A stretch of DNA of 64,000 bases from Armatimonadota bacterium (GTDB lineage: Bacteria > Armatimonadota > SYMT01): the NCBI GenBank assembly GCA_046292385.1, contig JBKBRF010000015.1, positions 32,001 to 96,000 of the forward strand, read 5' to 3'. This document shows, piece by piece, positions 1,860 to 39,842 of this stretch (the first letter of the stretch is position 1; the number at the start of each line of letters is the position of its first letter). The position numbers and the translations under genes are program-made. The notes beneath the pieces are model-generated. The model did not search any database. It was not told the DNA's origin and worked only from the letters and a program-made list of their open reading frames with translations.

Positions 1860-2440
1860 AGTTCGAACATCGTCCCACCCGGGCCGCCAGTTGGGACGAT
1901 TCGGGAATTGGGAGGCCAGGTCGAACGGCTTTACAGCTTCGAAATCGAGTACTCCCCTGCGAGTCGGTAGTTCGAACCGACAATTCTCAGCAGCCGGCGA
2001 ACTTCGACGTCTGCACCATTCCGCAGTATCTCCGAAGATTTATTACAGGGGCGGATGAACCGGTCACCACCTCCCTGGTGTCGATCAGAGGGAGTTCGAA
2101 CGCCGCCAGGTCCTGCTGACTCGTCATCCGCTGCAGCGTCAGCTCTTCTCGTCCCACCGTGAACTCCAGGTCATCGATCTGCCCGGAGAGCCGGAGGTCG
2201 AGCATGGTCTGCTGGCGGCGCTCCACTTCGGCGGGTCGCCTTGCGAGCAGCGGACGTAGATCGACGGCGCTCCCGCGTTTGCTTCGGGAGAGTGCCTCGG
2301 GGGACTCGCGGAGCCACTCAACGAGGGTAGGGTCGAGCCGGAGGTGCTCACTCACTCCAAGAGCAAATCGCTCCTGCCGATGCTCTTGGCGGAGGTAGCG
2401 CTCAGGGCAAGGACCGCGACTATGGCTGCAGTGGTAGTAG
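1860..2440 (-). pseudogene. C-terminal remnant of a large serine recombinase, paralog of 16013-17578
   Basis: YYHCSHSRGPCPERY...MLDLRLSGQI...RRLLRIVGSNYR...LDFEAVKPF aligns with YYRCSRRRGDCQEPY...LLDLRLGGHL...RELLRMVGSNYR...VDFEPVEPF across two frameshifts. The 5' part is lost at the IS66 junction. Confidence 0.8.
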
Positions 2441-3518
2441 TGACGAAGTATCAGCTGCTCCCCCGCCGGTGTGGGTGCTGCCGACGGCGGACCTGGGCGA
2501 CGTTCCCTGTGGGCGCGGGCCGGCGCTGCGTTGGCCCGCGGGTGCAGGCGGTCGCGGCGCTCCTCTCGCGCGCTTGCCGGCTCCCGCGGCGTCAGGTCCA
2601 GGCGCTCCTGCACGACCTTTTCGGCGTCCGGCTGTCGCTGGGCACGCTCTCCGCACTCGAGAGGGACACCGCGCGGGCTCTCGCCGCCCCGTACCATGAA
2701 GTAGCCGCCGCGGTGCCGCAGGCGGAGGTGGTGGGCGTCGACGAGACGAGCTGGCGCGAGGCGGGGATACTCCACTGGCTGTGGACGGCCGTGACGCGAG
2801 ACTTCGCTTGCTATCGCCTGGACCGCCATCGGAGCCGGGCGGCGTATGAAGCGCTGATGCAGGGCGGGAAGCCACCCGGAGCGGGCGAGCGCCGGAAGCC
2901 GCCTGCCACACGCGGCGGTCCGGTGGTGATCTCGGACCGCTATAGCGCCTACTCCCACCTGCCGCCCGCGCGGCGCTCTTTGTGCTGGGCACATCTCGCG
3001 CGAGACTTCCGGGCGGCGCACGAGCGCGGTGGGATCGACGCGGTGGTGGGCGGCTGGGCCCTGGAAGTCGTGGGACAGATCCTGACGCCGTGGCACCGCT
3101 ATCGGGCGGGCGAGCTGACGCGGGAGGCGTTCCTCGCCGACATGGCGGCGCAGCAGGAAGAGCTGCGGACGCCGCTGCGCTGGGGCAGCGAACACGGGTC
3201 GCGCCCGACGCGGGCGCTCTGTAACGACCTGCTGGACCGGTGGGAGTCGCTCTGGACCTGGCTCACCGTGGAAGGCGGAGAGCCCACCAATAATGCCGCC
3301 GAGCGCGCCCTGCGCTCCGCGGTGCTGTGGCGCAAAGGCAGCTTCGGACACCAGTCCGAAGCCGGCGCGCAGTTCGTGGAGCGCATTCTTACCACCGTCA
3401 CCAGGCTCCGCCTCCAGGGCCGCCACGTCTGGGACTATCTCGTCCGCACCTGCGAAGCCGCCGCCCACGACCAGCCCGCCCCCAGCCTCTTACCCCAAGC
3501 AGGTAGCTGAACGATTAC
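2441..3518 (+). mobile_element. IS66-family element, 5'-truncated (transposase ends at 3510)
   Basis: Motifs DETSW, VISDRYSAY, CWAHLARDF and PTNNAAERALR. Right end GCTGAACGATTAC (3506-3518) reads GTAATCG... on the reverse strand. N-terminus and left end are missing. Confidence 0.88.
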
Positions 3519-3616
3519 CCCGTGAGCGCGAGGATCTCTTGCGGCCGCTGCTCCAAATGTCGTCGCAGTGAGGCCAAGTGTCACCGCCTGTGAAAAAATG
3601 GCTCTCCCGCCATTTT

Positions 3617-5641
3617 GATACTGCTGGCGAACCGTTAGCCCTCGGTTGGTAAGCTCAAGTTACCGCCGTCATCATCCGGCTAAAGGCGCTCCGTCGGGTC
3701 TTTGCCAAGGGCACTTCCGCGAGCCACTGGGCCACCCGGTAGAAGTTCAGCGCGGTCGCGGTGAGCAGGTGTTGGAGCCGCGTCTTGGCGAGACCCAGGT
3801 AGCGACAGCGCCGCAGGCCGCACCGTCGCAACCCTTGGGAGAGCGTTCCTTCTACTCCGGCGCGGAGCGCGTAGGTCTCTTTGAAAGTTGTCGTCGTCTC
3901 TCGGACCCGGGCCGCCCGCAACGCCTCGTATTCAGCTTGCGTACGGAGCGTCACGGTCCGGCGAGCGACCTTGGAGCGGGTGCATTGCTCGCGACACGGG
4001 CATCTCCCACAGTCGCGCGTCGCGAAGCCGATCTTGATCACGGGAGTGCCCCGACGATCCACCACCGGATTCCACTTCGAGCTCCGCTTCCCCTGGGGAC
4101 AGGTCGCGTACTCTTCCTCCCAGTCCACGACGAAGTCGCTGGCGGCGAAGCCAGCTCCGGCCCGAGCTTGCCACCGGTAGTCGCCGCGGGTAGGTCCGAC
4201 CAGGTCGACCCCGAAAATCTCCCGACTGCTGATGAACAGCCCCGCATCGAGGTAGCCGGTATCCACGATTTGCTGGTCCGGGAGCAAGTCGCGGGTTTGG
4301 AGCTCCGCCTGGATGACGGGCGTGAGGTCCCCATCGGCGACGGGAGCCGGCGTCGTCTGCACTGCGGTAATGAGGTGGGGTGCATCGGCCTCACAGGTCT
4401 CGGTCAGATGCACTTTGTAGCCTTCCCACTGCGTCGTGCCTTTCACGCCGTAGCGAGCATCCGGGTCATAGGGTGTCCCGAGGAACCCGCTGGCCGGAGG
4501 GATCTCCGCATTGGTCCGCCAGCGCACCGAGCATTCTGCGCCGACAGCGGGGGGTTCGCGGTGGTAGTTCTGGACCCATACCTGACGCAGCGTCTCCACG
4601 GCGGGCAACTCCCGGAGCCACGCCGGAGCCGTCTCGGCGGTCACCGCCAGGAGTAAGGTATAGCCATCCCGACCGATGCGAGTGGCCAGCACTTCCCGTG
4701 CGGCGGGCTCCTTCGGCAAGCGCTCGTCATCGAAGCGGCGGGCGTACGACTGCGCCCACTCGGGCGGACAGAGCGGCCGCAGCCACTCCGGGGCCACGGT
4801 CGCCAGCACATTCAGGGCATGCCGCAGCGTCTCGCCGACCGCTTCCAGGCGGTTCATGGCCCGGGCTGCGGCCAGGACGTGCGTGGAATCGGTCCGCTGC
4901 CGGCCTCCCGCCTTCAGCAGATTGCGGGCTCGGAGATGATCCAGGAGGGTTTCGAACAGCAGTAGCTCCGCGGAGCCGGCGATCAGGCGAGTGCGGAACT
5001 CAGACAGGACGGAGGCGTCAAAGCCCGGATCGTCGAGCTCCAGCCCGAGCAAGTACTTCCAGTCCAGGCAGCGGCGGACGGCATCCGCCGCCTGCCGATC
5101 CGAGAGCCCTTCGATGAATTGGAGGATCACGACCAACGCAAGCCGCCAGGGGGCATGCGCCGGTTGACCACAGGGCGGGAACAGCGCGGAGAATTGGGCA
5201 TCGTGAAACAGGGTCCCGAACTCGTCGCGCATGGTGAGATAGGGGTTGCCCTTGGGAAAGGCGGCTTTGGCTACTCGGGCAGTCGCGGCGGGCACGGGCG
5301 TGAACTGGTCTGGGCGCAGGCACATCGCAGAACTCCTTCCCCGGCCTCGGGCCTCCGGGCATCCGGGCCAAGGTAGTCTTTCCCAAAACCTGCTCCGTGC
5401 CCGTACCGGCTTGGGGTGTACGCGTGCAGCGGGCGAGCTGCCAACCACGAGCAAGCGAGCGATAGGCTAGCGTCAGGGGCGGGAGAGCGAACCGGGCGCG
5501 GGGGTGTGGAAGAGCACCCAGCCAGCCAGAGCCACCTGAACCGGGGCAGCCACGTCGGCGCCTCGACCGCCCCGCGCATGTCGCTGCCAAGCACACGAAC
5601 CCCGCCTAGCAAGCACGCGGTAACGGTTCGCCAGCAGTATC
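3617..5641 (-). mobile_element. IS1182-family element with perfect IRs and target duplication
   Basis: GATACTGCTGGCGAACCGTTA (3617-3637) and its exact reverse complement (5621-5641), with CATTTT duplicated. Alternative reading: 20-bp IR with 8-bp CCATTTTG duplication. Confidence 0.92.
3655..5325 (-). CDS. IS1182-family transposase
   Basis: ATG at 5325 after AAGGAG. Motifs LSDRQAADAVR, DASVLSEFR, QRTDSTH, GYKVHLTETC, VDTGY and YALRAGVEGT. Confidence 0.92.
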   Translation of the reverse strand: MCLRPDQFTPVPAATARVAKAAFPKGNPYLTMRDEFGTLFHDAQFSALFPPCGQPAHAPWRLALVVILQFIEGLSDRQAADAVRRCLDWKYLLGLELDDPGFDASVLSEFRTRLIAGSAELLLFETLLDHLRARNLLKAGGRQRTDSTHVLAAARAMNRLEAVGETLRHALNVLATVAPEWLRPLCPPEWAQSYARRFDDERLPKEPAAREVLATRIGRDGYTLLLAVTAETAPAWLRELPAVETLRQVWVQNYHREPPAVGAECSVRWRTNAEIPPASGFLGTPYDPDARYGVKGTTQWEGYKVHLTETCEADAPHLITAVQTTPAPVADGDLTPVIQAELQTRDLLPDQQIVDTGYLDAGLFISSREIFGVDLVGPTRGDYRWQARAGAGFAASDFVVDWEEEYATCPQGKRSSKWNPVVDRRGTPVIKIGFATRDCGRCPCREQCTRSKVARRTVTLRTQAEYEALRAARVRETTTTFKETYALRAGVEGTLSQGLRRCGLRRCRYLGLAKTRLQHLLTATALNFYRVAQWLAEVPLAKTRRSAFSRMMTAVT

Positions 5642-5693
5642 CATTTTGGTGACGCAGGTGTCAGGAAGTGCCAGGCGCGTGTAGTCCCAGGGC

Positions 5694-7370
5694 ATGAGCA
5701 TTCCTGCTTTGCTTCCCGACTCGGCACTGGTCCGCGTCGACTACCTCTCGGCCACGGACGACGGGATCACCCTCGTCGCCAGCGCGGTGCAGGAGCGGCC
5801 CTTCTGTCCGGACTGCCAGGTTCCGGCCACCCGGATCCACAGTCGCTATCATCGCCAACTCGCTGCCTTGGCGTGGCAGGGGCTCCGAGTACGGCTGCGG
5901 CTCACGAGCCGGAGGTGGTTCTGCGACCGGCCGGAGTGCTCCCGGAGGATCTTCACGGAGCGCTTTCCCGGCCTGCTCTCCCGCTCGGCCCGTCGGCTGG
6001 ACCAGCTTACCGAGACGCTCCGCCACCTGGCTTATGCTCTCGGGGGCGAGCCGGGAGCCCGCGTAGCGGAGCACCTCGGGATCGGCACGAGCCCCGACAC
6101 CCTCCTGCGCTTGCTCCGGGAGCGAGGACGGCAACGCGCTCCCCACGTGCCGCGGGTCCTGGGGGTGGATGACTTCGCCTTCCGGCGCGGCCATACGTAC
6201 GGCACGCTCCTCCTGGATCTGGAAACCGGGGCTCCCGTCGACCTACTACCGGACCGAAAGGCGGAGACGCTGGCACGATGGCTGGAAGATCATCCGGGCG
6301 TGGAGGTGATTAGCCGCGATCGCGGCGGGAGCTACGCCGATGGGGCCCGGCAGGGAGCTCCCCGGGCACAGCAGGTGGCGGATCGCTGGCACCTCCTCAA
6401 GAACCTGGTCGAGGCGCTGGAGATCACCCTCACGTCGGAACAGCGGGCGCTGCAGCAGGCAGCGGAACTCGGGGAGCCTGCCACGGAAGAGGCGGTCGGG
6501 AAGGCCGCGGACCCCGCCGGGGAAACAGTCGACGTGTCCGCTCCTCCGTGCCCCGCCGCGGCGGAGCCCTCCGGCCGCGCCGAACGGGACCGCACGCGCC
6601 GGCGAGACCGCCGGCGCGTTGCTTACGAGGAAGTACTGCGACTACACCGCGCCGGTTACTCCCTGCGAGAGATCGCAGAACAGACCGGGAAGTCTCGCTG
6701 GACCGTCTCCAAGTACGTGCGCGCCGACGCCTTTCCGGAGATCAAGCAACGCCAGCCGCGACCCACGCAGTTGGATCCGTTCCGTGCCTACCTGGAGCGT
6801 CGGTGGGAAGAAGGCTGCCACAACGCCGCGCAGCTGTGGCGAGAGATCGAGGCGCAGGGCTACCGCGGCGCGGTCTCGCTCGTCCGGGCTTATCTCTCCC
6901 AACGTCGGGCTCGCCTGCCGGCAGAGGAACGGCGCACCAGCGGCCCGGTGCCGCGAAAGCCACACGCGACCCGCCCCCCGGCTCCCCGGGCGCTCGTCTG
7001 GTGGCTGGTCGGAGCCCCGGAGAAGTTGACGAGTGAGCAGGTAACGTTTCTCGCGCGGCTGACGGAGACTTGCCCGGCCGTCCAGGGTTGGCAGGAGCTC
7101 GCTCGCGCGTTCTTTCGCCTGGTGCGGGAGCGAGATGTGGAAGCACTCCCGCCGTGGGTGGAACTCGCCCGCCGGAGCGGGAGCAAAGAGCTGGCGAGCT
7201 TCGCGACGGGTCTGCGCCGGGACTGGGAAGCGGTGGTGGCCGGCGTCTTGTTGCCGTGGAGCAACGGTCCGGTCGAGGGCCAGATCAACCGCTTGAAAGC
7301 GCTGAAGCGCCAGATGTATGGCAGAGCCGGCTTTGAACTGCTGCGCGCTCGCGTCCTCCGGCCGGGGTAA
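5694..7370 (+). CDS. ISL3-family transposase
   Basis: Zn finger CPDC...C, LGVDDFAFRRG, ISRDR, VADRWHL and SNGPVEGQINRLKALKRQMYGR. Confidence 0.95.
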   Translation: MSIPALLPDSALVRVDYLSATDDGITLVASAVQERPFCPDCQVPATRIHSRYHRQLAALAWQGLRVRLRLTSRRWFCDRPECSRRIFTERFPGLLSRSARRLDQLTETLRHLAYALGGEPGARVAEHLGIGTSPDTLLRLLRERGRQRAPHVPRVLGVDDFAFRRGHTYGTLLLDLETGAPVDLLPDRKAETLARWLEDHPGVEVISRDRGGSYADGARQGAPRAQQVADRWHLLKNLVEALEITLTSEQRALQQAAELGEPATEEAVGKAADPAGETVDVSAPPCPAAAEPSGRAERDRTRRRDRRRVAYEEVLRLHRAGYSLREIAEQTGKSRWTVSKYVRADAFPEIKQRQPRPTQLDPFRAYLERRWEEGCHNAAQLWREIEAQGYRGAVSLVRAYLSQRRARLPAEERRTSGPVPRKPHATRPPAPRALVWWLVGAPEKLTSEQVTFLARLTETCPAVQGWQELARAFFRLVRERDVEALPPWVELARRSGSKELASFATGLRRDWEAVVAGVLLPWSNGPVEGQINRLKALKRQMYGRAGFELLRARVLRPG

Positions 7371-7467
7371 GGGGAACTGCGACGGCGAGCGGCCGAGCAC
7401 CTGTAGGGCTGATCTGCAGGGGCAGGAGTGGCCACCACGGCTCACCAGAAGTGCGGGAGAGCCATTT

Positions 7468-8646
7468 TCACTTCGGCGTTGACACCAAGCTCTTCCACCC
7501 TTCTCGGCGCTGCTGATAGTGGAGGAGCGTGAGCGCCGCGCAGCGAAGGCCGCCGAGCACCTGCACGAGGGTGGGGTTCGCACTTCGGCTCTCGTCTTCC
7601 CGCAACAGCGTGTCCCGCACCCAGTGGGAGCGGTTCTCGATCTGCCAGTGCGATCGGATCAGCGTCAACAACTCCCTCGCTCCCGCCTGACGGCGCTCCA
7701 AGCTCGTGATCCCGTAGACCAGCGTGCGCTCTGCAGGCTGCTCCTGACCGGCACGCGAGACCCAGCGCACCCGCTCCAGCAAAAAGTACTGGCGAGCCCG
7801 TCCCCAATCCAGCCGCTCACCGGGCGGGGGCGCGACGAGCGTCAGGCGTCGGAGCTCCCGCCGGCCATGTCCCCGCTCATACTGCTCTACGGCTTCGGGG
7901 TGCCAGCTCTTCGGGAGCGCCGTGGCGAAGATCTCCTGTAGCGCCCCCTGCAGACCGGGTTGGTTTCCCTTCACCGGCATCACGTAATCGGCTCCCGCCG
8001 CGACGAGGCCGAGGGCGATCTCTTCTTGCGTGAGGAGGGCATCCACGACCACGACGCGGCCGCGCACCGGCAAGCGCAGGAGCAGCTTGGGCACGGCGGG
8101 AATCTCATTGCTCTTCCGCGAGACGGGCTCCAGGTCGAGGGTGATCCCCAGGTCGTGCGTAAAGGCCGAGAGCAGGTGAGCCACCTCTGACCCTTCCCGG
8201 AGACTGCCCTTAACCGTCTTTCCGTCACACGAGAGCGCCGCTTGCCCCTCTGGATCGAGATACGCCAGCAACGCCAGCGCCCAGGCCCGCAGTTGGGCGG
8301 CGAAGCAGGTCCAGTCGAGGGCGGAGAGCACTTCGTGCAGGGTGCTGGCCGCGGGCGTCTTGCCTTCCCGGAAGCCCAGAGCGCGGCGCACGGGCTCCTC
8401 TGCCCCGCGCCCCCACTCGTGGATGCCCTGGCGGTGGGTCCGCCCTGCCAGCGTAGCCACCACCACGAGCAGGAGAATGGCCTCCAGCGGGTGGCGCTTG
8501 CCTCGGGCCTGCCGCGGATCGGGGACTTGGCACAGATACTCGCGCAGCTTGGGCGATTCGCCCGCAGAGACCGTTGCTTCGGAGACGGAGCGAGTGGGTA
8601 CAGGAAGCGGCCCAGCGGGCGGCGAAGCGGAAAGGGCGGCAGTCAC
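7468..8646 (-). pseudogene. ISAs1-family transposase, C-terminally truncated by insertion
   Basis: PDPRQARGKRHPL, DGKTVKGS, KSNEIP, DALLTQ, VKGNQ and RSHWQIENRSHWVRD; the tail is displaced to 3519-3578. Confidence 0.88.
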
Positions 8647-8873: not shown

Positions 8874-9071
8874 ATGCGTTCAACGTCTCAAACGTCGCCT
8901 AGCCACCGTGCAGCACCAGTGAGCATCTCGATCGGTAACCTCCGAGATGGAACCCTAGGCATCTACCACCCTACTACCACGGCCAGTTGTGGCAGCGGAA
9001 CAGGAAGCGGCACAGGCAGCGGTAGTGGTACAGGCAGCGGTAGTGGCAGTGGTGGAGCCGGCACCACCTAG
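8874..9071 (+). CDS. Putative RiPP precursor peptide 1 (Gly/Ser/Thr-rich core)
   Basis: GGAG before the ATG. Leader ISIGNLRDGTLGI and core ASCGSGTGSGTGSGSGTGSGSGSGGAGTT; lies upstream of radical SAM genes. Confidence 0.7.
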   Translation: MRSTSQTSPSHRAAPVSISIGNLRDGTLGIYHPTTTASCGSGTGSGTGSGSGTGSGSGSGGAGTT

Positions 9072-9098
9072 GGCCGTCTCACGCTATCTAACCCACCC

Positions 9099-9344
9099 AT
9101 GCCCATCCACCTCAAAGCTCTGATGAAACCACGCTTCGAAGACCATTTCTATCGTGAACGGCCATCCTTCGAGATAGGCCATCTCTCTGATGGTCACCTT
9201 CTCATCAGGGACCGTCCTCTACCCGCGCCTTCAGCCAGTGGCTCGGGCAGTGGCTCGGGCAGTGGCTCGGGCAGTGGCTCGGGAACTGGCTCAGGCAGTG
9301 GATCCGGCACCGGATCCGGTAGCGGCTGTGGCCAGTTGGTGTAG
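9099..9344 (+). CDS. Putative RiPP precursor peptide 2 (Gly/Ser/Thr-rich core)
   Basis: Leader FEIGHLSDGHLLI matches precursor 1; (GS/GT)n core ends GCGQLV; stop is 5 bp before the rSAM start. Confidence 0.75.
   Translation: MPIHLKALMKPRFEDHFYRERPSFEIGHLSDGHLLIRDRPLPAPSASGSGSGSGSGSGSGSGTGSGSGSGTGSGSGCGQLV
9236..9283 (+). repeat. Four perfect 12-bp tandem repeats (CAGTGGCTCGGG) encoding SGSG
   Basis: Read directly from the sequence. Confidence 0.9.
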
Positions 9345-9349
9345 GCGAG

Positions 9350-11542
9350 ATGGACGCAAATTCGAATGCTCGTCAACGTCCGGCCGCAAATCAGCGTGTC
9401 CAAGTCTTGTATTTCAAGACCGTTTCACGGCTACTGCCCCACTACTTCTCGGTCGATCATGCGGATATTCACACCCACTGGGACGCGGAGGTAGGCGCTA
9501 ACGTTACGAGCGTCGATCTCGGAGCAATGTTCTGGCGGTCCATCTTGGATACTCATAAGCTGCGCGATCTTCTTCGCACCCGTGAAGTGGACGCCGAGGA
9601 GTCCGACCTGGTCCAACGCCAATTCGATGACGCTACCGTAAGCGCCCTGCCCAAAGCACTAGCGACCCTTGGTTCCGTCCGAGAGCGCGTGCCCGACCCA
9701 AGGGATCTGTGGTCGGCTTTCCACGTGGTGAGCCGAGCAACCGACATCGCATCGGGTCTTTTGGCTGACGAACTCGACGCGCACCTCGCGCGAGGACTTG
9801 TGAGCACCGGCTTCCGCCAGTATGATCTAGAATCCATCCTGGACTCCGTAGAAGCCAATCCGAACATCCCACTCGTCGTTACGATTCAGCGGCTGTGCGA
9901 AAGAGCAATCGCAGAGATCAATGGACCGGACTGGTTGATTCCAACGGTGGTTGTAATCAATCTGCGCAACGATGGTGAGATCGCTCAGGTACTATCAGTC
10001 GCATCCTTCTTCAAGCGACAGCGCATAAATGCGACGATCGTCTTGGATGCGTCAGGCTCTAATGAGCAGTTCAGCTTTAAATCATGGACGGACGCTTTCT
10101 TAGCGCAACGTGCACGAGTGGGGAAGTGGATCAACTACTTTCTCCCGCAGCAGGACTATAAAGCCTCGCTCAAACGTGTTATCTCGTCGTTGGCTGCTGC
10201 TAAGCGTCCCTCCCAAGAGAGTGTTTCGGGACTTGTTGAGCTCGCCCCTGCGCCTTTCCCCCCCGAGTCCGATGCGGTGCCGGCCAAGTCAGTTGACGCA
10301 GCGTTCTCGGATTACATTAGTAACTTACCAACTTTCAAAGTCGCAGGACTGAAGACGGTCGTTGCTCGTCTTCTACCCACCCGTTGTCATTGGTCCGCCT
10401 GCACCTTCTGCACGATCAACTCACAGCACCCTTTGCCTCGCGGCAAAGTGTATATGGACCTAAATGACTTGGGACATATGAATGCGCTGCTAGACGTGTT
10501 GGAACGTGATCAAGTGGAGTCAGTTATTCTAACAGATGAAGCTTTGCATCCGACGGTATTGAACACCTTTGCCTCGGCCGTGTTGCGCCGCGATCTTAGG
10601 TTTGTCTACCGTGCTCGAGCTCGATTCACCGACGAGTTTACACAAGAGCTCTGTGATCAGTTATACGCATCTGGTTGCCGGTACCTTGGTCTCGGTCTAG
10701 AGGCAGCTTCACCGCGGGTCAATTTAATAGTGAACAAGCATCGAGGTGCGTCACCCAATTACCTGCATATTCTGGCGAACCTTGAGAACGCCGGGGTCCG
10801 CCCCCACGTCTATGCCATACTAGGGTTCCCTACAGAAACCCTAGAGGAGATTAGCGCGACCTCAACGTTGCTCGCCTCAGCAATCCGAAACTCAAAGTAC
10901 GTTACCACGAGCCCGAATCTGTTTTATTTAATGCGTGGCTCCAAGATGGCTGCAGAGCCTGACAAGTATGGAATCAAGTTGCTCCCTACCGATACCATGG
11001 CACTCGTCCACAACTTTACGGAAGAGCAATGGTCGCACAATCGCAGCTATGCAAGCGAATGCGTTTCAGCGTTACATCGCTTGCAGTTTTCCCCTGATGT
11101 GGAGAATTCAACCGAGGCGGAGAGCTATTGGCACTTCATCGATCAGACCGGCATATTCTATCTTGAGAAGGTGAACTACTCTAACAATCCCTATCGGCAA
11201 TTGGCTGCCGATGCTGCACGAATCAGCGGGGATGAAATTCGGACAGGCTTGCTGCTCGAAGGCGAGCTCTTTGAACTTGAAGGCGCCAGTCAGGACGGAT
11301 CTCTCCTTCTCTGTGATTGGGTAACCAACAACTACGCGCGTATCGACGAACGCTTCCGGAGCGTTATCTCTGCCATCCTTTCGGGCTACGATAGCCGCGA
11401 GGCTGTTCAACTGGTCGAGCCGCAATTGCGAGAGGATGCCGTGCATCTCGTCACCGCTTTGTGCCAGAGTAGAATGTTGTCGCCGAGGCGCGAGGTGAAT
11501 CACCTGGAGGAACGACATGGCTATTACGCTGGAACGCATTGA
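9350..11542 (+). CDS. B12-binding-type radical SAM protein with possible C-terminal RRE/PqqD-like domain
   Basis: CHWSACTFC (CX3CX2C), LTDEAL, SGCRYLGLGLEAAS and YAILGFPTET. Confidence 0.85.
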   Translation: MDANSNARQRPAANQRVQVLYFKTVSRLLPHYFSVDHADIHTHWDAEVGANVTSVDLGAMFWRSILDTHKLRDLLRTREVDAEESDLVQRQFDDATVSALPKALATLGSVRERVPDPRDLWSAFHVVSRATDIASGLLADELDAHLARGLVSTGFRQYDLESILDSVEANPNIPLVVTIQRLCERAIAEINGPDWLIPTVVVINLRNDGEIAQVLSVASFFKRQRINATIVLDASGSNEQFSFKSWTDAFLAQRARVGKWINYFLPQQDYKASLKRVISSLAAAKRPSQESVSGLVELAPAPFPPESDAVPAKSVDAAFSDYISNLPTFKVAGLKTVVARLLPTRCHWSACTFCTINSQHPLPRGKVYMDLNDLGHMNALLDVLERDQVESVILTDEALHPTVLNTFASAVLRRDLRFVYRARARFTDEFTQELCDQLYASGCRYLGLGLEAASPRVNLIVNKHRGASPNYLHILANLENAGVRPHVYAILGFPTETLEEISATSTLLASAIRNSKYVTTSPNLFYLMRGSKMAAEPDKYGIKLLPTDTMALVHNFTEEQWSHNRSYASECVSALHRLQFSPDVENSTEAESYWHFIDQTGIFYLEKVNYSNNPYRQLAADAARISGDEIRTGLLLEGELFELEGASQDGSLLLCDWVTNNYARIDERFRSVISAILSGYDSREAVQLVEPQLREDAVHLVTALCQSRMLSPRREVNHLEERHGYYAGTH

Positions 11543-12299
11543 CTCAGATGGGCTGGAAAGGGCTCGTGCTCTGCCCTTCTACGATTTTGTAGAAACAGCT
11601 GCAAAAACCGGAGAAGCCTACTCCATCAATGACAACGGCTACTGCATAGTGGCGCACTCCGACTCACTTGTACCGAATCTCGTTGTTGAGATTAAGCTGC
11701 CTCGGCTTCGGTTTCCGGATGATTACGTTGAACTCAGCTACAAGCTGAATGACATCAGTAGTGGCTTCATGTGGTTTGATACATCGATGAACGACGCCTT
11801 CGATTTCGCATGGCGAATGCGATTGCCTCTCCGGGCGCAGTCACCGTTGTACATCAGCGATGGTCATTCGTTGCCAGATTCCATCGATGGCTTGGATGTT
11901 GTCCAGGCCGATGACGACCATCTGGACACCGCAGTTGCACTTCTCGGTAACATTCCAGATTATCACGGCGGCCTTCGAGCAGAATTCGTCGAACGCAAGA
12001 TTGCGTCACGGAATGTACTCTCACTCGTCCGGGGCGATCAGGTGCACGGGGTTGTGGCCCTCACCGAGCAACCTAACAACTTCGTGACCGCTAGCGCACT
12101 GGCGGTGCTCCCAGAGGAGCGCGGGGCAGGCCTCGGACAGCGATTTGCTCAGTTGCTGCTGCGAAGGATCCATGGCGAAGGAAAGCGGCTCGTAGCTGGT
12201 ATGGCTAATGACGTTCCTGCTTCCGCCCGTATTGCTCGAAGTTTGGGGATGACTGTGCAGAGGCACGCTTTCACTGCCCAGATCTGTTCTGGCTTTTAG
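11517..12299 (+). CDS. GNAT-family N-acetyltransferase
   Basis: Acetyl-CoA motif LAVLPEERGAGLG and PASARIARSLGM; overlaps the rSAM stop. Confidence 0.85.
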   Translation: MAITLERIDSDGLERARALPFYDFVETAAKTGEAYSINDNGYCIVAHSDSLVPNLVVEIKLPRLRFPDDYVELSYKLNDISSGFMWFDTSMNDAFDFAWRMRLPLRAQSPLYISDGHSLPDSIDGLDVVQADDDHLDTAVALLGNIPDYHGGLRAEFVERKIASRNVLSLVRGDQVHGVVALTEQPNNFVTASALAVLPEERGAGLGQRFAQLLLRRIHGEGKRLVAGMANDVPASARIARSLGMTVQRHAFTAQICSGF

Positions 12300-12314
12300 C
12301 CGGACGTTGAAGTA

Positions 12315-12361
12315 AGCAAAACGCGCTGCCGGAGGAAGACCCTGCGGCAGCGCGTTTTGCT
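12315..12361. terminator. 17-bp perfect-stem hairpin, possibly a bidirectional terminator
   Basis: AGCAAAACGCGCTGCCG...CGGCAGCGCGTTTTGCT, with A and T tracts at the stem base. Confidence 0.7.
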
Positions 12362-12413
12362 GTAGTTACACCTGACCCCCAGGTGCGGCGCGCTTTGGTG
12401 GAACTAAGTAGCG

Positions 12414-14252
12414 GTGGATAAGACTGTGTTTCGACTTGTTTCCATGCCGTTCGTCTCAGCCCGGCGTCCATCCATTCAACTTGGGCTACTGAAGTCGATA
12501 CTCGCCCAGCAAGGAATAGAATGTACCACTCACCACTTGAATCTCTATTTTGCGGAGGACATCGGTCTGCCTCTCTACGAGGCCATATGCGAACACCGCG
12601 GCACACAGATTGGTGACTGGGTCTTCGCACGTTCTGCATTCGGAGGAGACGCTCCACCTATCACCTCAATGACCCGGGATGTATTCAGCCCAACGATTGA
12701 ATCTATAAATCGTGAGGTGGAGTTAGCTTTCGAGGAATTGGTCGAACTACGAGATCACGTGGCTCCGCGGTTCCTTCGCGAAATGGCCAGCCTACTGGAC
12801 TGGTCAGACAGTCTTGCCGTCGGTTTCACCAGCACTTTCCAGCAGAACGTAGCTTCTCTAGCTATGGCTCGTCTTATCAAGGCTACCGCCCCAAACGTCA
12901 AAATTATCTTCGGTGGAGCAAATTGTGAAGTCCCTATGGGGCAGGAACTGCTTCGGAGTTTCCCTTGGGTCGATTACGTTGTCGCGGGAGAAGGGGACGA
13001 CGCACTTCCAGGGTTGTTACGCTGTTTGATGCACGGTGAGGACCCCGAGAACATTCCTAACGTCCTGAGGTCTGGGGCGTTACCTCAACTGGACTTTGCC
13101 CCGGAAGTGGTGCAATCCCTGAGTCAGTGTGTCCCGGATTACGATGAGTATTTCTCCACTTCGATTGCTACAGGAGTTCTCAGCGCCGAGGCGTCCGTAG
13201 ATGTCACTTTGCCGATCGAAACTGCTAGAGGCTGCTGGTGGGGTGAGAGGCAGCATTGCACGTTCTGTGGTTTAAATGGGTCACACATGCGCTATCGGAG
13301 TAAGCCGCCGGAGGCCGTGCTTTCGGAGGTTTCGGCGCTTTCAACTCGCTACAAGAGCTTCTTTTTTGCGGCAGTCGACAACATACTAGATTTCGGTTAC
13401 TTCGATACCTTGGTGCCGATGCTGGCCCAGGCGGGTCTTGGATACTCGTTCTTTTACGAGACAAAGTCGAACCTTTCAAAGCAGCGTATTCGGCTATTAT
13501 GGCAATCAGGGATAAGGATGGTGCAGCCTGGCATTGAATCCCTCTCGACTGACATTCTGGCGCTGATTAAAAAGGGGGTGAGTGGCCCTCAAAATATTTG
13601 CGCACTGAAATGGCTCACCTATTATGGTATTCGAGCTTATTGGAACCTTCTCTGGGGTTTCCCAGGCGAGGAAAAGGCGTGGTACGATGCCCAGGCGGCG
13701 CTAATCCCCCGACTGACACACTTACAGCCACCGCAGGGCATGGGGCGGATCCGCTTGGAGCGATTCAGCCCACTCTTCCGTGAGAGAGGACTGTTTAAGC
13801 TAATCAAACACGAGCGTAGTTATGCTGAAGCGTATCCGATTGGCGTTAACTTGGACCAGATAGCCTACTTTTTCGACTATGAGTTGAGAGATGCAGTTCC
13901 ATCGGAGGCATATGAGAATACAAGACTCGCTGGAGAAACCTGGTCGGCCATGTGGGCGGAAGCGCCCACACCGCCATATTTGAAATATCGGGCCTCCCCG
14001 CACTATATCAGGTTTTACGACGGCCGGGATCCTGATAATCTTAGGACAATCGGGTATTCTGGCTCCGCATCATCAGTTTACCGCATCGTTGACGAGAAGC
14101 CGATATCAGTACGGGAGCTTATGAATCGGATCGAGGGCACAAGTTCGTCCGAAGTTCTAGGGTGGTTAGATCTTTTCGAAGAACAGGGGCTGGTCGTGCG
14201 TGAGAATGGAAGGGTCTTTGGGCTCGCCACCCCAGACCTCGAGGGGCGTTAG
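12414..14252 (+). CDS. RiPP maturation radical SAM C-methyltransferase (B12-dependent, TIGR03975/PoyC-like)
   Basis: LVSMPF..RPSIQLGLLK, VGFTSTFQQN, GGANC, ETARGCWWGERQHCTFCGLNG (CX7CX2C), QPGIESLS, WNLLWGFPGE and RFSP. Confidence 0.92.
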   Translation: MDKTVFRLVSMPFVSARRPSIQLGLLKSILAQQGIECTTHHLNLYFAEDIGLPLYEAICEHRGTQIGDWVFARSAFGGDAPPITSMTRDVFSPTIESINREVELAFEELVELRDHVAPRFLREMASLLDWSDSLAVGFTSTFQQNVASLAMARLIKATAPNVKIIFGGANCEVPMGQELLRSFPWVDYVVAGEGDDALPGLLRCLMHGEDPENIPNVLRSGALPQLDFAPEVVQSLSQCVPDYDEYFSTSIATGVLSAEASVDVTLPIETARGCWWGERQHCTFCGLNGSHMRYRSKPPEAVLSEVSALSTRYKSFFFAAVDNILDFGYFDTLVPMLAQAGLGYSFFYETKSNLSKQRIRLLWQSGIRMVQPGIESLSTDILALIKKGVSGPQNICALKWLTYYGIRAYWNLLWGFPGEEKAWYDAQAALIPRLTHLQPPQGMGRIRLERFSPLFRERGLFKLIKHERSYAEAYPIGVNLDQIAYFFDYELRDAVPSEAYENTRLAGETWSAMWAEAPTPPYLKYRASPHYIRFYDGRDPDNLRTIGYSGSASSVYRIVDEKPISVRELMNRIEGTSSSEVLGWLDLFEEQGLVVRENGRVFGLATPDLEGR

Positions 14253-14469: not shown

Positions 14470-15649
14470 TGCCGCATGCCGTGTACGAGCGAGTGCTTCC
14501 TCGACGGCTTGCTTCAGGCGCCCAAGACCGGCGTAACTCCGGACCGGCATCTCGCGGTGCTTCGCGTCCTGCCAGATGGGTTCGATCCGGGAGAGCTCCG
14601 GGCAGTAGGAGGGCAGATTAGAACAGGTGCACGTCCGCCGCAGCCAGGCGGACCGCCTCTGCCTGGACCCGCGTGCTCCGATGCACCGAGTAATTGTCGA
14701 TCACGATCGTCAGGGGACGCTCGCGCCGCCAGTGGGGTGGCGCGTCTGCTGGCCGCCCCGCGAGCAACCAGAGAAAAGCCGGGAACACCGCGGCGCCGAT
14801 GACGCCCACTTCCTCCGGGACCAGCCCGTGATCAGCGGGCTCGTTCCGCTTCGCTCTTGCGTGCCTGCTTGGCCCGGCTACTCGGCAGGCTGGCAAACGT
14901 CAAGAAGGAGAAGGTGTCGGCGAGCGGGCCGTGGGAGAAGTAGCCGCCGATAGCATTAACTCTCCGTCCCTGGGGTGCCTCATACGGGACGGTGACCCGC
15001 TGTCGCACGAGCCCCCATCTGTAGCTCGTCGGCGCGGTGGGAGCGAAGCCGGCTTGATCTACGTGGCAGAGGTCCAACCGACCGGCGGCTCCCCCTTTTC
15101 CAGCTCTGCCAGCTCCGCCCGCTTCTCTGCCACCTTTGTGGGGTCCTGCTTGTGCTTCAGACGGCGCTGGGTGCGTTTGTACAAAAGCTTCTCCCGCTTG
15201 AGCAGGCGGCCCAGCCAGTCCGCCGAGAGCCGGAGGCCGTGGTGTTCTTCCAGCCAGTCCGCCAGTTGCGCCGCGGTCCACGTCCGGTCTCCTTTTGCCA
15301 ACTCGGCGCGGAGCGCTTGCCGCAGGGCGGGAGTGAAAGCCGACGGCTGCCCCACGTGTGGTTGGTCGGGGAGCCCGGCGAAGCCCTCCTGGAGAAAACG
15401 GCGGAGCCAGAAGCGCACCCGCTGGGGAGACTGCTGCAGATGTTGGGCGATGCGGGTGGCACTCCACCCCGCGTGGGAAAGCCGCACCATCTCCGGGCGA
15501 TCCCGGGTGCGCGGCTTGGTGCCGGGGTCGCGGGTAAGCTGCCGTAGCTTGGTGAGTTGCTCCCCAGTCAGACGGACGCGATACAACCTCTGTCCCTCCC
15601 ACGGAGGATTACGTGTCCGAGCGTGGCACTTACTCCCCCGGACCGCTTA
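14470..15649 (-). mobile_element. IS630-family element, degenerate
   Basis: HTH ORF 15059-15586, slippery GAAAAGGGGG near 15095, and a broken DDE part (VDQAGF, IDNYSVH, PELSRIEPIW) with extra frameshifts and stops. One end is at TA 15648-15649; the other is unresolved. Confidence 0.82.
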
Positions 15650-16012: not shown

Positions 16013-17578
16013 TTACCAAGTCCTCCCGAGCGCGGACTCTACCGGTCTTGGCGCGATGCTCGGGGCAGGCGGTGGGGAGGCCCGGCGTATGGCTTCGAGT
16101 GACGCCCTGCTCACCTCAAGGTCGGGAAGATGGCGCGACTGTGCCGCGATGGTGAATGGCTCTACCGGTTCGAAGTCGACCTTACCGCCGCCGTAGCGGT
16201 AGTTCGAACCCACCATCCGCAATAACTCCCGCGCTTCGCTCGGCTCTGCCTGCGCCAGCAACTCCGGGAGCGTGTTACAGGTGGAGATGAACCACTCCAC
16301 CGCCTCTCGCGGGTCACCGGGATCGAGTTCGGACCGCTGCACCTGCTCGGCGACCTTCGCTTCGTCGAGCATGAGTGCCTCCTTCTTGGCGAGGTACTGC
16401 TCGTCCGTGAGGTGACCGCCCAGGCGCAGGTCGAGGAGCACCATAAGACGGCTACGGACCTCCTGCTGCCGCCGCTTCAGGGCAGCGAGCCCGTCGTCGC
16501 CACGCCGCCGCTCCGCATGCAGCACTTCGGCCGCCTCCCGAAGACTGACAGCCAGTTCCGGCCGGAGCTGAAGACGGCCATCCAGCGCCGCCGCGATCAG
16601 CGCCAGGAACCGCGCTTCAGGGACATAGGGCTCCTGGCAGTCGCCGCGCCGGCGGCTGCAGCGGTAGTAGATGTACTTTCTCTTCTTGAGATCCCCGACG
16701 ACGGCGCAGCCACACTCGCGGCAGACAAAGAGACCGCCGAATCTGAAGTCATGCGTCTGGCGGCGGGGCCGCGACCGGCCGGCCAGCACCTCCTGGACCT
16801 TCTCGAAGAGGGCGACGGAGATGAGCGGCTCGTGGCTGGCGGGGTGCAGCTCTCCTTTGAACCGGAGGAAGCCGCAGTAGAACGGGTTGGTGAGGATCCG
16901 GTCCCGCAGGATGCTCTTGGTGAGCAGCTTGCCGGTCAGGCGCCCGACCAGGCCCGCTTCGGCCATCTTCCGGGTCAAGGTGGCGAGCGAGTACTCGCCG
17001 GTCGCGAAGAGCTCGAACGCCTGGATGATCAGCGGGCCGAGCACCGGATCGATGATGATCCGCCGGGGTGCCGTCGGGTCCTTGACGTTCAGATACCCGA
17101 GCGGAGCCCAGCCCGGCCATTCGCCGCGGGCGAGCTTCTCCCGCAGCCCCTTCCGGACCTCCTCGGAGAGATTGTCGACGTAATACTTGGCGAAGACGAC
17201 GTTGATCCCGAAGATCATCTTCCCCTGGGCGTTGTTCTCGTAGGAGCCGGTGACGAAGAGCAGCTCCAGGCCGGCGTCGATCAACTCGTTCAGCCGCGCC
17301 CAGTCGGCGATGTTGCGCAGCAGCCGGTCGGGCTTGTGGGAGAGGATCCGCACCGCGGTGCCTTGCCGGAGCAGCTTCTCAGCCTGCTTGAGCATCGCCT
17401 CGAAGAGCGGCCGCCCCGGACGGCGCGCCGAGTGAGACTCCCGGATCAACTCGGTGATCGGGGTAGCGTGCCGGTCTGCGAAGGCGCGGCACTCCTTCTC
17501 CTGGGCGTCGAGGCTCAAGACCTGGCGGTCATCGTCCTCGCTGGAGCGGCGAGTGTAGAGGAAGGTGGCACATGGCAT
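16013..17578 (-). CDS. Large serine recombinase (resolvase, recombinase and Zn-ribbon domains)
   Basis: YTRRSS, SARRPGRP, KPDRLLRN, PLGY, LTNPFYCG, HEPLIS and CRECG...YYRC; AGGAGG RBS. Confidence 0.95.
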   Translation of the reverse strand: MPCATFLYTRRSSEDDDRQVLSLDAQEKECRAFADRHATPITELIRESHSARRPGRPLFEAMLKQAEKLLRQGTAVRILSHKPDRLLRNIADWARLNELIDAGLELLFVTGSYENNAQGKMIFGINVVFAKYYVDNLSEEVRKGLREKLARGEWPGWAPLGYLNVKDPTAPRRIIIDPVLGPLIIQAFELFATGEYSLATLTRKMAEAGLVGRLTGKLLTKSILRDRILTNPFYCGFLRFKGELHPASHEPLISVALFEKVQEVLAGRSRPRRQTHDFRFGGLFVCRECGCAVVGDLKKRKYIYYRCSRRRGDCQEPYVPEARFLALIAAALDGRLQLRPELAVSLREAAEVLHAERRRGDDGLAALKRRQQEVRSRLMVLLDLRLGGHLTDEQYLAKKEALMLDEAKVAEQVQRSELDPGDPREAVEWFISTCNTLPELLAQAEPSEARELLRMVGSNYRYGGGKVDFEPVEPFTIAAQSRHLPDLEVSRASLEAIRRASPPPAPSIAPRPVESALGRTW

Positions 17579-30344: not shown

Positions 30345-33300
30345 TCAGTAGTTTCTTGCGTCCGACTGCTTGTGGATCATCTTTGGCTTCTTGGGCGGAC
30401 GTCCAATTCCCTTGCCTCCGTCGTTGTACTTCCAGTCCTCAATATCCTCGTCGTACTCCTTTCGCTTCTTCCTATCCTTACGACCATCATCCTTGTGTCG
30501 TTCCCTCCTCTCCTTGGCGTCCTGCCATCGGTCGAGGTCGGTCTGCGAATCGTCCACCGTATCGACGGGAGGGTTTCCGACGATTTCGTCTTCTCCCGAG
30601 TTGCTCTGGCTGATGGCCCATCCAACTCCGACAACAACTACTACAGCAAGGATTCCTAGGAGCACCCAACCTCCTGGTCCTGACACGACCAACGGAGCCG
30701 CCATGGTCATGTATGCCACAGCCCCCGCACCAGGGGCCAACACCGCTGCCCCAGGGTGTGTGCCACGTGGATCAGTGGCATTAACAGGGTTGTTGGATGA
30801 GTAGGCGTAGAGGTTCAGCCCTCCACTATAGCCGATTGGATCTCGGCTTATGAACCTTCCCACGCTCGGGTCATAGTACCTCGCTCCCAGCAGCATCAAC
30901 CCGCTGTCGGGGTCCTTCTGATATCCCTGCCCGCCGACAAACCCGAAGGGAGTCGGTAGCCCGGTGCCGGCGACCGTCATCCCAAAGGCGTCGTACTCCC
31001 GGCTGTGCGTGACGCTCTGGCTGCTGTTCGTCAGGCCCCGCGTGCTGCCGAGCTGGTCTCCATGGTAAGTTCGGCTGGTGCTACCCTCCCGCTCGCTCAC
31101 CAAGCCGGTGACACCACCCCGGGTGTAGTCGGCCCGGCTGTCCGCCACCACGTCATTGCCGTCAAAGACGTAGGTGGTGGTGCCCGCGCTGTCGGTCTTG
31201 CTAACGCGCTTGCCGAGATCGTTGGTGACGAAGCTGTTGGTGGTGCTGTTCGGGTAGGTGATTCCGGTCAGCTTCTGGTTGTAGTCCCAGGCCAGCGTGG
31301 TCGTCTGACCGCCCTGGATAACGCTCGTCAGGTTCCCGGCGTTGTCATACCCGTAGCTCTTGCTCCCGGCAGTGAGAAGTTGGTTGTTGTCTCCGTAGGT
31401 GTAGCTCTCCGTGACCCCACCGACCGTCTTGCTCGTCCGGTTCCCCGTGTCGTCATACGCGTAGGTGATGGTGTAGGGGCTGGTGCCGGTCCGGGTCTCG
31501 CCCGTGAGCTGGTAGGCGTCGTCGTACGTATACGCGACGGAGTGGTCGTTCACCTGCACCGACCCCGTGATCTCGCCGGCATTCCCGCGGGTGTACTCGT
31601 AGCGGGCGAGCACCGTGTTGTTGCTCTGGCGGTGCTCGATCGCGTCGAGCCAGCCCCGATCCGCGTTGTAGGTGAGGACCACCTTGGTCCCGTTGGCGTG
31701 GTCCTGCTGCGTGGTGCGGCCGGCGGCGTCCAGGGTGAAGCTGGTCGTCTCGCTGAACCGGTTCTGGATCGAGGTGAGCCGGCGCGCGTTGTCGTAGCCA
31801 TAGCTGGTGCTGCCGAGACCTGTGCGGGTCAGGTTCGAGCGCATCCCGGCCGCGTCGTAAAGATACTCCAGCGTCCCCTGCGGCCCGTCCACCTCCGTGA
31901 CCGCGCCGTTGTCGTCATAAGTCCAGGTGTAGGTGCCGGTGCGGTCTACCAGGCTATCCCGCAGGTCGTTGTCCAGGTAGCTGATCGTGGTGTCGGTGCC
32001 AGTCGGGTAGTCGATCCCGGTGAGGCGGTCGCAGTCGTCGTAGGAACGGTAGACGGTGTTGTTGCGACCGTCGGTGTGCGCTGCGATCTGACTGTTGGCG
32101 GTGTAGGTCCAACCCTCGGTCGTGCTATCCGGATAGGTGACGCCGGTGACGCGGTACATTCCGTCCAGCGTCCAGGTGGTCGTCTTGTTCCGCGCATTGG
32201 TGAGCGAGGTCCGCTTTCCCACGTCGTTGTAGCCGAAGGTGGTCTGTTTGAGGTTGGCGTCAGTTACCGAGGTGACCCATCGCAGCGCGTTGTAGGCGGT
32301 GGCGACGGTCTTCCCGTTCTCATCTTCCAACTGGGTTAGGTTTCCCTCGGCGTCGTAGGTGTGCTCCCGGTCTGGGCCATCGGTCCCGTTGGCCAGCACA
32401 TGGATTAACTTCTTCACGCGGCCGAGATCGTCGTGCGTAAAGCGGGTCCGTAACCCGGTCGGGTCAGTTATCTTCGTAACCCAACCCAGCCCGTTCACCT
32501 CGAAGGTAGTGGTGTTCGTGAGGGGGTCTTCCTCCGTGAGCACGTGTCCATTCGCGTTGTAGCCGGTCTCCCAAATTTTCAGCAGGGGATCGGTGACGTG
32601 GGTCCGCTGCCCGTAGGTGTCGACCGTGTAGACCCAGTCGTTGTTCAGCGCGTCCGTCTTGCCGGTGCAGTTGCCGTCGACATCGAAGCTCCAGGTGGTC
32701 ACGTTGCCGAGGGCGTCGGTGGCGGAGGTGCGGCGGTTCAGGCTGTTGTAGGTGTAGGTCCACTTCGTGACGCCCGGAAGCGTGCGGGTGATCGGGTCCT
32801 CTTCCGTCAGCACGTTGCCGTTCCCGTCGTACGTCCACTCCCAGATGTCGCCGGAAGGCTTCGTCATGCTCTCCCGGTTATGGTCGCTGTCGTAGGTGTA
32901 GGAGACGTTGGTGTAGGAGCCGCCGTAGGTCGGCTGCTGGCGCGTGCCGGTCATCTCGCCATCGCCCTGGATGAAGTAGGCGGTGACGTTGCCGGCCTCG
33001 TCGGTCACGTCGAGCTGGTTGTTGTACGGGTAGGCGTAAATCCGCTGCTCGGCCAGCGGGTCGGTAACGGTGGTGAGGCGGCCGGAGCCATCATACGCAA
33101 AGCTCCAGGAGTAGCCCCGCCGGTCCTTTACGCTCGTCACCGCCTTCACGCTGTCGTAGCCGAACTCCACGTAGTACCCGGACGTGCCGGGGTCGGTCAC
33201 CCGGTAGAGATGCGAAGGCGATCCCGCGTAGGACAGGTTCCAACTTCGGGAGAGCGGGTCGGTGATGCTGGTGATCACATTGCCCGTGTAGCTGAAGGTG

Positions 33301-34046: not shown

Positions 34047-34142
34047 GAGTCGTCTCCTTCGGGAGCGGCGCAGGACGGCCGCAGGTATCGCGATAAGTGC
34101 AATAGGCACAAACGCGTGGAAGAGGATGTTGGGAGCTTCAGA

Positions 34143-39588: not shown

Positions 39589-39842
39589 CCGAGCCAGCTC
39601 TCCTCATTCGTCCAGTAGTTCGCCCGGCGGCGGTCGTTGCTCCTTAAAACGTAGCCGGCTCGGCCGTGGATGCGCCGGTTACTAGAATGTTCGGCCGGTT
39701 GGCGTCTATGCCAGTACCTAATCGGCTCCCGCCTGACGCACCTTTCAATGGCCCTATCAACGACCATCGTTAGCATGGGAACGAGACCGGTCGAGGCCGA
39801 GTGGGACCGCTTCTCGCACCAGACGAACACCTCAGCCCTGCG

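Follow-up and report, generated by a model that had tools for sequence, protein, structure and literature searches.

Among the peptides that ribosomes make and that are modified after translation (RiPPs), radical S-adenosylmethionine (SAM) C-methyltransferases of the TIGR03975 type, which we take to include PoyB/PoyC, the bottromycin methyltransferases and MpcB, serve the polytheonamide/proteusin, bottromycin and clavusporin systems. Other RiPPs, such as selidamides and lipolanthines, are lipidated by Gcn5-related N-acetyltransferases (GNATs), and lanthipeptides, linaridins and microcin B17 are formed by Ser/Thr dehydration or by Gly-Ser/Gly-Cys heterocyclization. Here we analyze a five-gene locus at positions 8874-14252 of a 64-kb stretch of an Armatimonadota genome (the window; GenBank assembly GCA_046292385.1, contig JBKBRF010000015.1, positions 32,001 to 96,000), in which two short peptides built of Gly-Ser/Thr repeats are encoded beside two radical SAM enzymes, rSAM1 and rSAM2, and a GNAT. 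Known here from genes and structural models, the locus very probably represents a real, undescribed RiPP family with rSAM1 as its uncatalogued maturase, and could prove to be a new class with new chemistry.

A sequence-only reading of the window had listed five co-oriented genes, and open reading frames (ORFs) of 65, 81, 730, 260 and 612 amino acids are indeed present:

8874..9071, plus strand: precursor A, 65 amino acids, with the IGNL leader motif at 8931-8942, Cys39, 10 GS/GT dipeptides and a short tail
9099..9344, plus strand: precursor B, 81 amino acids counted from the ATG at 9099, with an IGHL leader motif, 14 dipeptides and the tail C-G-Q-L-V
9350..11542, plus strand: rSAM1 (P0001), 730 amino acids, with a class-B-type Rossmann domain, a CX4CX2C barrel and a C-terminal winged helix resembling a RiPP recognition element (RRE)
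11267..11476, plus strand: the RRE-like, putative leader-binding domain of rSAM1 (residues ~640-709), three strands followed by three helices in the model
11517..12299, plus strand: tandem GNAT-fold protein (P0003), 260 amino acids, its start overlapping the end of rSAM1
12315..12361, plus strand: hairpin with a T-rich end, between the GNAT and rSAM2 genes
12414..14252, plus strand: rSAM2, 612 amino acids, B12-dependent RiPP C-methyltransferase (TIGR03975) with a CX7CX2C motif, likely accessory

The almost pure GS/GT cores that had been reported are present in both peptides. Precursor A carries seven GS and three GT dipeptides after Cys39 and precursor B carries 12 GS and two GT dipeptides ahead of C-G-Q-L-V, and these consecutive runs of 10 and 14 are the longest in the 7.04-Mb genome in six frames (next longest, 5). 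In 300 dinucleotide-preserving resamplings of the region, the longest GS/GT run was 3, compared to 14 observed. A GGAGA ribosome site lies 5 nt before the ATG of precursor A, whose Gly and Ser codons are mixed; precursor B has no recognizable Shine-Dalgarno sequence at ATG 9099 or ATG 9123, leaving its start uncertain. Neither these two peptides nor nine related precursors matched an NCBIfam precursor family, and matches of precursors to FEA1 and to the YiaD lipoprotein (13-19 bits versus cut-offs of 175-250) were rejected as low-complexity.

We searched GTDB genomes and Joint Genome Institute metagenomes for related loci and found 18, of which 13 are close (L001-L003, L008-L017) and five distant (L004-L007, L018). 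Small precursors with a conserved leader and a distinct GS core stood beside the rSAM1 homologue in 11 of the 13 close loci, the two misses being fragments of 1081 and 1806 bases, and the named hosts are Acidobacteriota and Alphaproteobacteria. The concern that homologous radical SAM enzymes might lack adjacent GS-rich peptides therefore does not apply to the close family. An x-G-[NHK]-L leader motif precedes the core by 16-40 residues in 16 of 17 close-family precursors, the 17th being cut off by a contig end. Among the distant loci, L004 and L005 encode GS precursors with a different leader together with an M50-type peptidase, L007 has a partial GSG stretch, and no precursor was seen in L006 or L018.

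Across 19 core spans, the 215 non-Gly positions comprise 179 Ser, 32 Thr and 4 Cys and no other residue, and a Cys lies directly before or after most cores. Core Ser draws on both of its codon families (103 TCN and 76 AGY), and since Ala, Pro and Asn lie one base change from these codons yet never occur, selection appears to act on the peptide itself, pointing to the beta-hydroxyl or, counting Cys, the beta-heteroatom of Ser/Thr/Cys. In two genomes that carry GS precursors, every match of a (G-S/T)4-G codon pattern fell inside the cluster (15/15 in G404 and 3/3 in G403).

We modeled precursor A in complex with rSAM1 and obtained a score of 0.72, versus 0.00 for the best of three controls; among complexes of solved structure 116 of 157 pass the docking mark, among mismatched pairs 2 of 215, and these counts hold roughly here as the docking used its own alignments. 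Contact agreement between runs was at least 58% and the partner's predicted local distance difference test (pLDDT) at least 52. The docked IGNL motif pairs with rSAM1 residues 659-663 and contacts helix 696-709, a geometry resembling known RRE-leader complexes, and likeness to solved complexes of this kind may have helped the docking pass. A search for an RRE, which the sequence-only reading had proposed, gave a divided answer: the Pfam PqqD model (PF05402) does not match rSAM1, and the model shows RRE-like topology with the leader docked on it, so the label follows from topology and docking. The model thus supports rSAM1 holding the precursor leader via its C-terminal RRE-like domain.

rSAM1 is an uncatalogued radical SAM family. 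Its only Pfam match is PF04055 and it reaches no NCBIfam cut-off, the best score being 44.6 bits to TIGR04479 (PhpK family P-methyltransferase; cut-off 600), with 26.3 bits to NF050148 (ApyD; cut-off 750). At least 26 homologues share 35-47% identity at E<=1e-80, followed by a gap to 1e-8, among the best 8000 candidates scored. In a profile search across 1.84 billion representatives, rSAM1 fell inside a wider clade marked by N-E-Q-x-D/N-F, with a sister clade that includes organisms reading TGA as Gly; the tree of relatives is a quick one with long-branch warnings. The cluster motif is C346-x4-C351-x2-C354, i.e. CX4CX2C and not the CX3CX2C first read from the sequence, and these three are the only Cys invariant across the family. 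A search by sequence gave no solved-structure match. In a confident model (pLDDT 88, predicted template-modeling score 0.89) a Rossmann domain and a radical SAM barrel are followed by the C-terminal three-strand/three-helix domain; rSAM1 lacks a SPASM domain, and an auxiliary cluster cannot be recognized. Barrel motifs and Cys-loop spacing link it to the PhpK family and to CX4CX2C class-B enzymes such as OxsB (CX4CX2C in PMC9204698), TsrM and ApyD, but it falls far below the TIGR04479 cut-off and conserved bulky or polar residues stand in place of its cobalamin motifs.

These replacements bear on the claim that both radical SAM enzymes are B12-dependent. In solved structures, three motifs meet the cobalamin tail: a G-x-S on beta3, a GG on beta4 and, at alpha5, a GE (PMC9204698). 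rSAM1 has the N-terminal Rossmann domain and radical SAM barrel of class B but neither the G-x-S on beta3 nor the GE at alpha5. We aligned the profile of 24 family members to that of GG-bearing homologues (hhalign probability 99.2): the G-x-S site reads V/I/L/F202-I-N204 (V/I/L/F-I-N-L-R), the first Gly of the GG site aligns to D/E233 in 24/24 and the GE site is an invariant P-x-Q-D-Y, with R206, N207, D208, E210, N238, E239 and Q240 also invariant. All three motifs are retained in rSAM2 and in most of the 18 GG-bearing homologues. Among 58 NEQ-type rows, a regular expression picked up GG-like strings in four (P0026, L014, P0027 and L010); that in P0026 lies after alpha5, and L014 is the same protein or a near copy. 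The proposed search with B12-binding models was negative, with no PF02310 or other Pfam B12-binding match in the 24 rSAM1 family members (0/24) and 26.7 bits for rSAM2, below the PF02310 cut-off of 32.1. With no Pfam B12-binding match and replaced motifs, the claim of two B12 enzymes is doubtful for rSAM1; judging pocket closure from the alignments, we consider rSAM1 likely to be cobalamin-independent and probably not a B12 methyltransferase.

The earlier assignment of the other enzyme as a RiPP C-methyltransferase stands. rSAM2 scores 600.2 bits against TIGR03975 (cut-off 281.85), has the CX7CX2C motif and keeps its cobalamin motifs intact (V-G-F-T-S, I-I-F-G-G and A-G-E-G). Homologues occur only in the window, L003, L011 and L014, that is in 4 of 12 precursor-bearing loci (besides the window, 3 of 13 close loci), with firm negatives limited to L001, L002 and L012, which have long flanks on both sides. 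An enzyme that 8 of these 12 loci lack cannot be what defines the class. A precursor tail of the form C-G-[EQ]-[VL]-x is found in the same four loci and in none of the eight others; the Fisher p of 0.002 for this association is overstated, because the loci are related (about three positive lineages in a quick tree) and several negatives are short contigs. In the window, the hairpin at 12315-12361 sets rSAM2 apart from the first four genes (-43.5 kcal/mol, z -8.0, 0/200 shuffles equally stable; arms of 21 nt, 95% complementary). A terminator scan with a loop limit of 8 nt did not report it, and it is possibly a terminator or an mRNA-stability element. Together, locus distribution, tail type, hairpin and leader docking indicate that rSAM1 is likely the class-defining maturase and rSAM2 a tailoring enzyme.

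rSAM2 shares its family cut-off, CX7CX2C motif and cobalamin motifs with the proteusin, bottromycin and clavusporin systems, and iterative work on a repetitive core is plausible. The locus differs from them in that this enzyme is accessory, the close-family leaders are not the nitrile-hydratase-like leaders of proteusins, and the cluster has no epimerase, DUF5825 partner or S9 peptidase; the cores are also nearly free of the Val, Ile and Pro methylated there (PMC10849626, PMC5682303, PMC11285071). For CX7CX2C enzymes, the passages on substrates in PMC5682303, PMC10849626 and PMC11285071 give Val, Ile, Thr, Gln, Met, Phe and Pro as residues methylated at the beta-carbon, with Gly and Ser unlisted. 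By analogy, this range would fit the precursor B tail and the Thr residues better than Gly or Ser. The original proposal of iterative C-methylation of Gly or Ser is accordingly weakened by the absence of TIGR03975 from most precursor-bearing loci, by this substrate list and by the probable loss of cobalamin binding in rSAM1.

The GNAT was correctly recognized from sequence: P0003 narrowly passes PF00583 (20.8 versus a cut-off of 20.7), and its model (pLDDT 89) is a tandem GNAT fold matching 3iwg (Z 20.7, root-mean-square deviation (rmsd) 3.0, 242 residues aligned) and MshD 1ozp (Z 15.1), with an intact acetyl-CoA loop, R-G-A-G-L-G. A homologue search with P0003 alone recovered only itself among 1874 candidates; relatives were recovered from the loci, with one to three GNAT homologues in each of the 11 precursor-bearing close loci. 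Because the cores have no Lys, the enzyme would probably acylate a Ser/Thr oxygen, Cys or the N-terminus. L001 and L002 additionally encode a LeuA-like enzyme, a methyltransferase, two ketoacyl synthases, FabG, a MaoC dehydratase, an enoyl reductase, an acyl carrier protein and an acyl-CoA ligase, gene content that suggests peptide lipidation. Selidamides, lipolanthines and lipolasso peptides likewise have a cluster-encoded GNAT, and the fatty-acid genes of L001/L002 extend that likeness; in contrast, the cores here have no Lys or Orn, the GNAT is tandem with a degraded CoA loop in many loci, and the window has no fatty-acid cassette.

Based on these data, we propose a mobile cassette whose minimal unit would be a poly-Gly-Ser/Thr precursor with a GNL leader plus rSAM1, joined in the close family by the tandem GNAT. 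In the modeled first step, rSAM1 would bind the leader through its RRE-like domain; with its SAM motifs intact, it would then cleave SAM at a single [4Fe-4S] cluster and abstract a hydrogen atom from the core. As its cobalamin pocket seems to be filled and there is no sign of an auxiliary cluster, rSAM1 would not be expected to transfer methyl groups. A single cluster, only three invariant Cys and the probable absence of cobalamin would leave it without an obvious carrier for methyl groups, sink for electrons or Cys to donate hydrogen, which would favor redox-neutral chemistry. This preference and the restriction to Ser/Thr/Cys make radical dehydration the leading guess, albeit a doubtful one: loss of the Ser/Thr beta-hydroxyl could yield alternating Gly-dehydroalanine/dehydrobutyrine, much as AprD4 acts on a sugar diol, and the Cys flanking most cores could then add to a dehydro residue. 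The GNAT may acylate the Ser/Thr oxygen, providing a better leaving group, or the N-terminus, and in L001/L002 may take its acyl chain from the clustered type II fatty-acid cassette. In loci that encode it, the TIGR03975 enzyme would, from what is known of its family, beta-methylate Val, Leu, Gln/Glu or Thr of the precursor with the C-G-[EQ]-[VL]-x tail.

AprD4, a 1,2-diol dehydratase, and ArsL offer the nearest precedent. Homologues of both have a Rossmann-like domain without cobalamin (PMC12931638), and the PaArsL cluster cysteines are C209, C213 and C216 (10.64898/2026.04.29.721666). rSAM1 resembles them in domain layout, a single cluster and an altered or absent cobalamin site, and AprD4 is in the top tied group of its fold matches (Z 16.3, rmsd 4.0, 376 residues aligned). 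It differs in that identity is 13%, their substrates are small molecules, and rSAM1 adds an RRE-like domain and travels with precursors. As in lanthipeptides, linaridins and microcin B17, Ser/Thr/Cys stand beside Gly and the product may hold dehydro residues, but no LanB/LanM/LanC-type enzyme or YcaO was recognized in the window island or the scanned close loci.

The reading that rSAM1 is the first member of a cobalamin-free clade with a class-B fold and processively dehydrates, or crosslinks by ethers, every core Ser/Thr has in our estimate a probability of roughly 0.4. Several observations weigh against the scheme proposed above. Fold scores within 1 Z of AprD4 were obtained with MiaB/MtaB (15.8-15.3; MiaB 15.6) and the cobalamin-binding TsrM (15.4), QCMT scores Z 15.2, and Foldseek ranks TsrM and OxsB first. 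Gly236 is kept in 20/24 family members and Gly237 in 8/24, after a two-residue insertion, so that the GG pocket may partly survive, and the Atlas automatically names several of the nearest clusters 'B12-binding', with PF02310 given for 15-40% of the members in those clusters that show it. In the cores, Gly is conserved just as strictly as Ser/Thr and could itself be the reactive site. The GNAT CoA loop is degraded in L001, L002, L010, L013 and L015, where it may have a non-catalytic partner role, and G403 and G407, genomes of unstated completeness that pair GS precursors with a distant rSAM1, yielded no GNAT homologue, weakening the case for an obligatory acetylation step. Neither a leader peptidase nor an exporter was found within the low-GC island of the window that holds the cluster; among related loci, peptidases are papain-like in L003, M50-type in L004/L005 and S8 in L007.

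Several of these points would fit rSAM1 as an atypical cobalamin-dependent, or two-SAM, methyltransferase that converts Gly to D-Ala, giving an alternating D/L backbone, or Ser to a Thr-like residue, which we regard as unlikely but the strongest competitor. Its class-B fold, with TsrM, OxsB, TokK, CysS and QCMT as top matches, and the partly kept Gly236 speak for it, as do three B12-binding proteins above cut-off encoded by the host. QCMT is described as C-methylating a protein Gln, reportedly at C-alpha, and the strict Gly/X alternation would suit a polytheonamide-like D/L helix. It has to contend with the alteration of all three cobalamin-tail motifs in 24/24 members and with PF02310 in 0/24, and a reaction aimed at Gly alone would not demand that X be Ser, Thr or Cys.

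That restriction, with the equally strict Gly and the Cys bordering most cores, would be explained if rSAM1 joined each Ser/Thr oxygen to the alpha-carbon of the next Gly, forming morpholinone rings of the TqqB/rotapeptide type, or linked Cys to the core by thioethers. We judge such crosslinking somewhat less likely still: B12 radical SAM enzymes that form thioethers have been described (PMC12931638), but these are oxidations needing an electron sink, and rSAM1 lacks SPASM, has three invariant Cys and probably no cobalamin. One or two Cys are also too few for 5-16 repeats.

Epimerization of Ser/Thr to D-residues, as by the proteusin and epipeptide epimerases, would leave the mass unchanged and is improbable. 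It does not require cobalamin, and PoyD-type enzymes typically work iteratively on every other residue, but no fourth invariant Cys is available as hydrogen donor, and with achiral Gly between them an all-Ser inversion would give little more than a mirror-image chain. Slightly lower still we place transfer of a SAM fragment, either aminocarboxypropyl, as by ArsL, or adenosyl, with the GNAT capping the new amines. Besides AprD4, PMC12931638 names ArsL as a radical SAM enzyme of Rossmann type that is free of cobalamin, and the transfer would supply the amine acceptor missing from Lys-free cores; no positive sign of it was seen, and the C-terminal CCxxC that ArsL needs for arsenic (10.64898/2026.04.29.721666) is absent from rSAM1. 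That the GS peptides are not substrates at all, being linker-like or non-coding repeats while the enzymes act elsewhere, is very improbable: the lack of a protease or exporter in the island and of a clear ribosome site for precursor B would fit, but leader motif and core are conserved across phyla, codon use points to protein-level constraint and the leader docks specifically.

The setting of the cluster suggests a mobile island. GC content of the three enzyme genes is 53-54% versus 69% for the genome, and four transposases lie to the left, with a transposase-type ORF and a serine recombinase to the right:

2344-7370: IS66, DUF772-type and ISL3 transposases, further left of the DDE transposase
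7468..8646, minus strand: DDE transposase (domain matches PF13808 and PF01609), left edge of the island
15059-15586, minus strand: transposase-type helix-turn-helix ORF, right edge of the island
16013-17578, minus strand: large serine recombinase, right edge of the island

rSAM1 turned up in the host but in none of 400 other genomes drawn from its phylum (1 of 401), and the cluster DNA was not found in 20 relatives, so the cluster looks horizontally acquired. We found no confirmed viral-contig loci for it, no plasmid match at E 1e-15 and no RNA dataset holding the stretch among those listed. One DNA run (X1) holds the stretch; its contigs cover the region with zero differences and break inside the precursor B repeat, and as this run is possibly the source of the stretch it is not independent confirmation. 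A promoter scan was at chance (5 versus a mean of 3.0). Farther along the window, 16013-42216 resembles an integrative element, with the serine recombinase, a DNA methylase, DUF932, an RHS-repeat protein (30348-34109), a coupling-protein-like ATPase (39801-41381) and a replication-relaxase (41377-42216). At 44502-59966, QueC adjoins HerA and NurA genes, followed by a metallophosphoesterase and an SMC-like ATPase, which may be a defense or DNA-modification island.

The related loci vary widely in gene content. Expanded Acidobacteriota clusters (L001:4558-14407 with L034:52-8012, G404:C9; L002:7989-17814 with L036:413-6851, G406:C18) combine a type II fatty-acid cassette and a pair of rSAM1 paralogues with 2-3 precursors and 2-3 GNATs, and have a CRP/FNR regulator upstream; in the precursor ahead of the second paralogue, two Cys bracket a short core, and the follower is long and acidic. 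In L003, a papain-like peptidase (PF12385/PF13529) and a 215-amino-acid ORF lie upstream of the precursor (6429-7581), and a second, divergent GNAT directly follows the TIGR03975 gene (~12700-13520). The L015 rSAM1 homologue is split over two frames (728-2900), through either a frameshift or an error of sequencing; in other respects this cluster is complete. A Spirochaetota locus (L007:6613-11911) combines an S8 peptidase, a distant rSAM1, a precursor with GSG and a Cys-rich core and two PapB-like SPASM enzymes, possibly a hybrid with ranthipeptides, and a Margulisbacteria locus (L006:6793-10799) carries a tandem pair of distant rSAM1-clade genes, and its whole assembly shows no GS precursor. 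Several distant rSAM1 homologues show Trp where Gly is expected, consistent with a TGA=Gly code. L018:6133-11540 (25% GC) is open under that code (table 25) and encodes a 693-amino-acid distant rSAM1-clade protein between two YcaO-type genes, PF02624 being confirmed for the first, with another radical-SAM-looking ORF nearby.

The first reading recognized no described RiPP class with such a core. NCBIfam and Pfam scans and our search of the literature likewise found no description of such a family; subscription papers and supplements lay mostly outside it, and a mention in a mining atlas is possible. A GSGSGSG string in a paper with radical SAM enzymes (PMC12338566) is an engineered spacer and not this peptide family.

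RiPP classes are defined by their core-modifying enzyme, and rSAM1 fits no catalogued family. Its substrate is so simple that the reaction could be read directly by mass spectrometry. If rSAM1 is cobalamin-free, many proteins automatically labeled 'B12-binding radical SAM' may perform other chemistry, including those of the sister clade in TGA=Gly organisms. Dehydration or ether formation, if true, would provide an ATP- and tRNA-independent route to dehydroamino acids and a new RiPP class, in which the standard flexible linker of proteins would become a modified, polymer-like peptide, with lipidation or methylation added in sub-families. Since fusion proteins everywhere contain GS linkers, an enzyme able to modify Gly-Ser repeats behind a short, portable leader would also be a tool for protein engineering.

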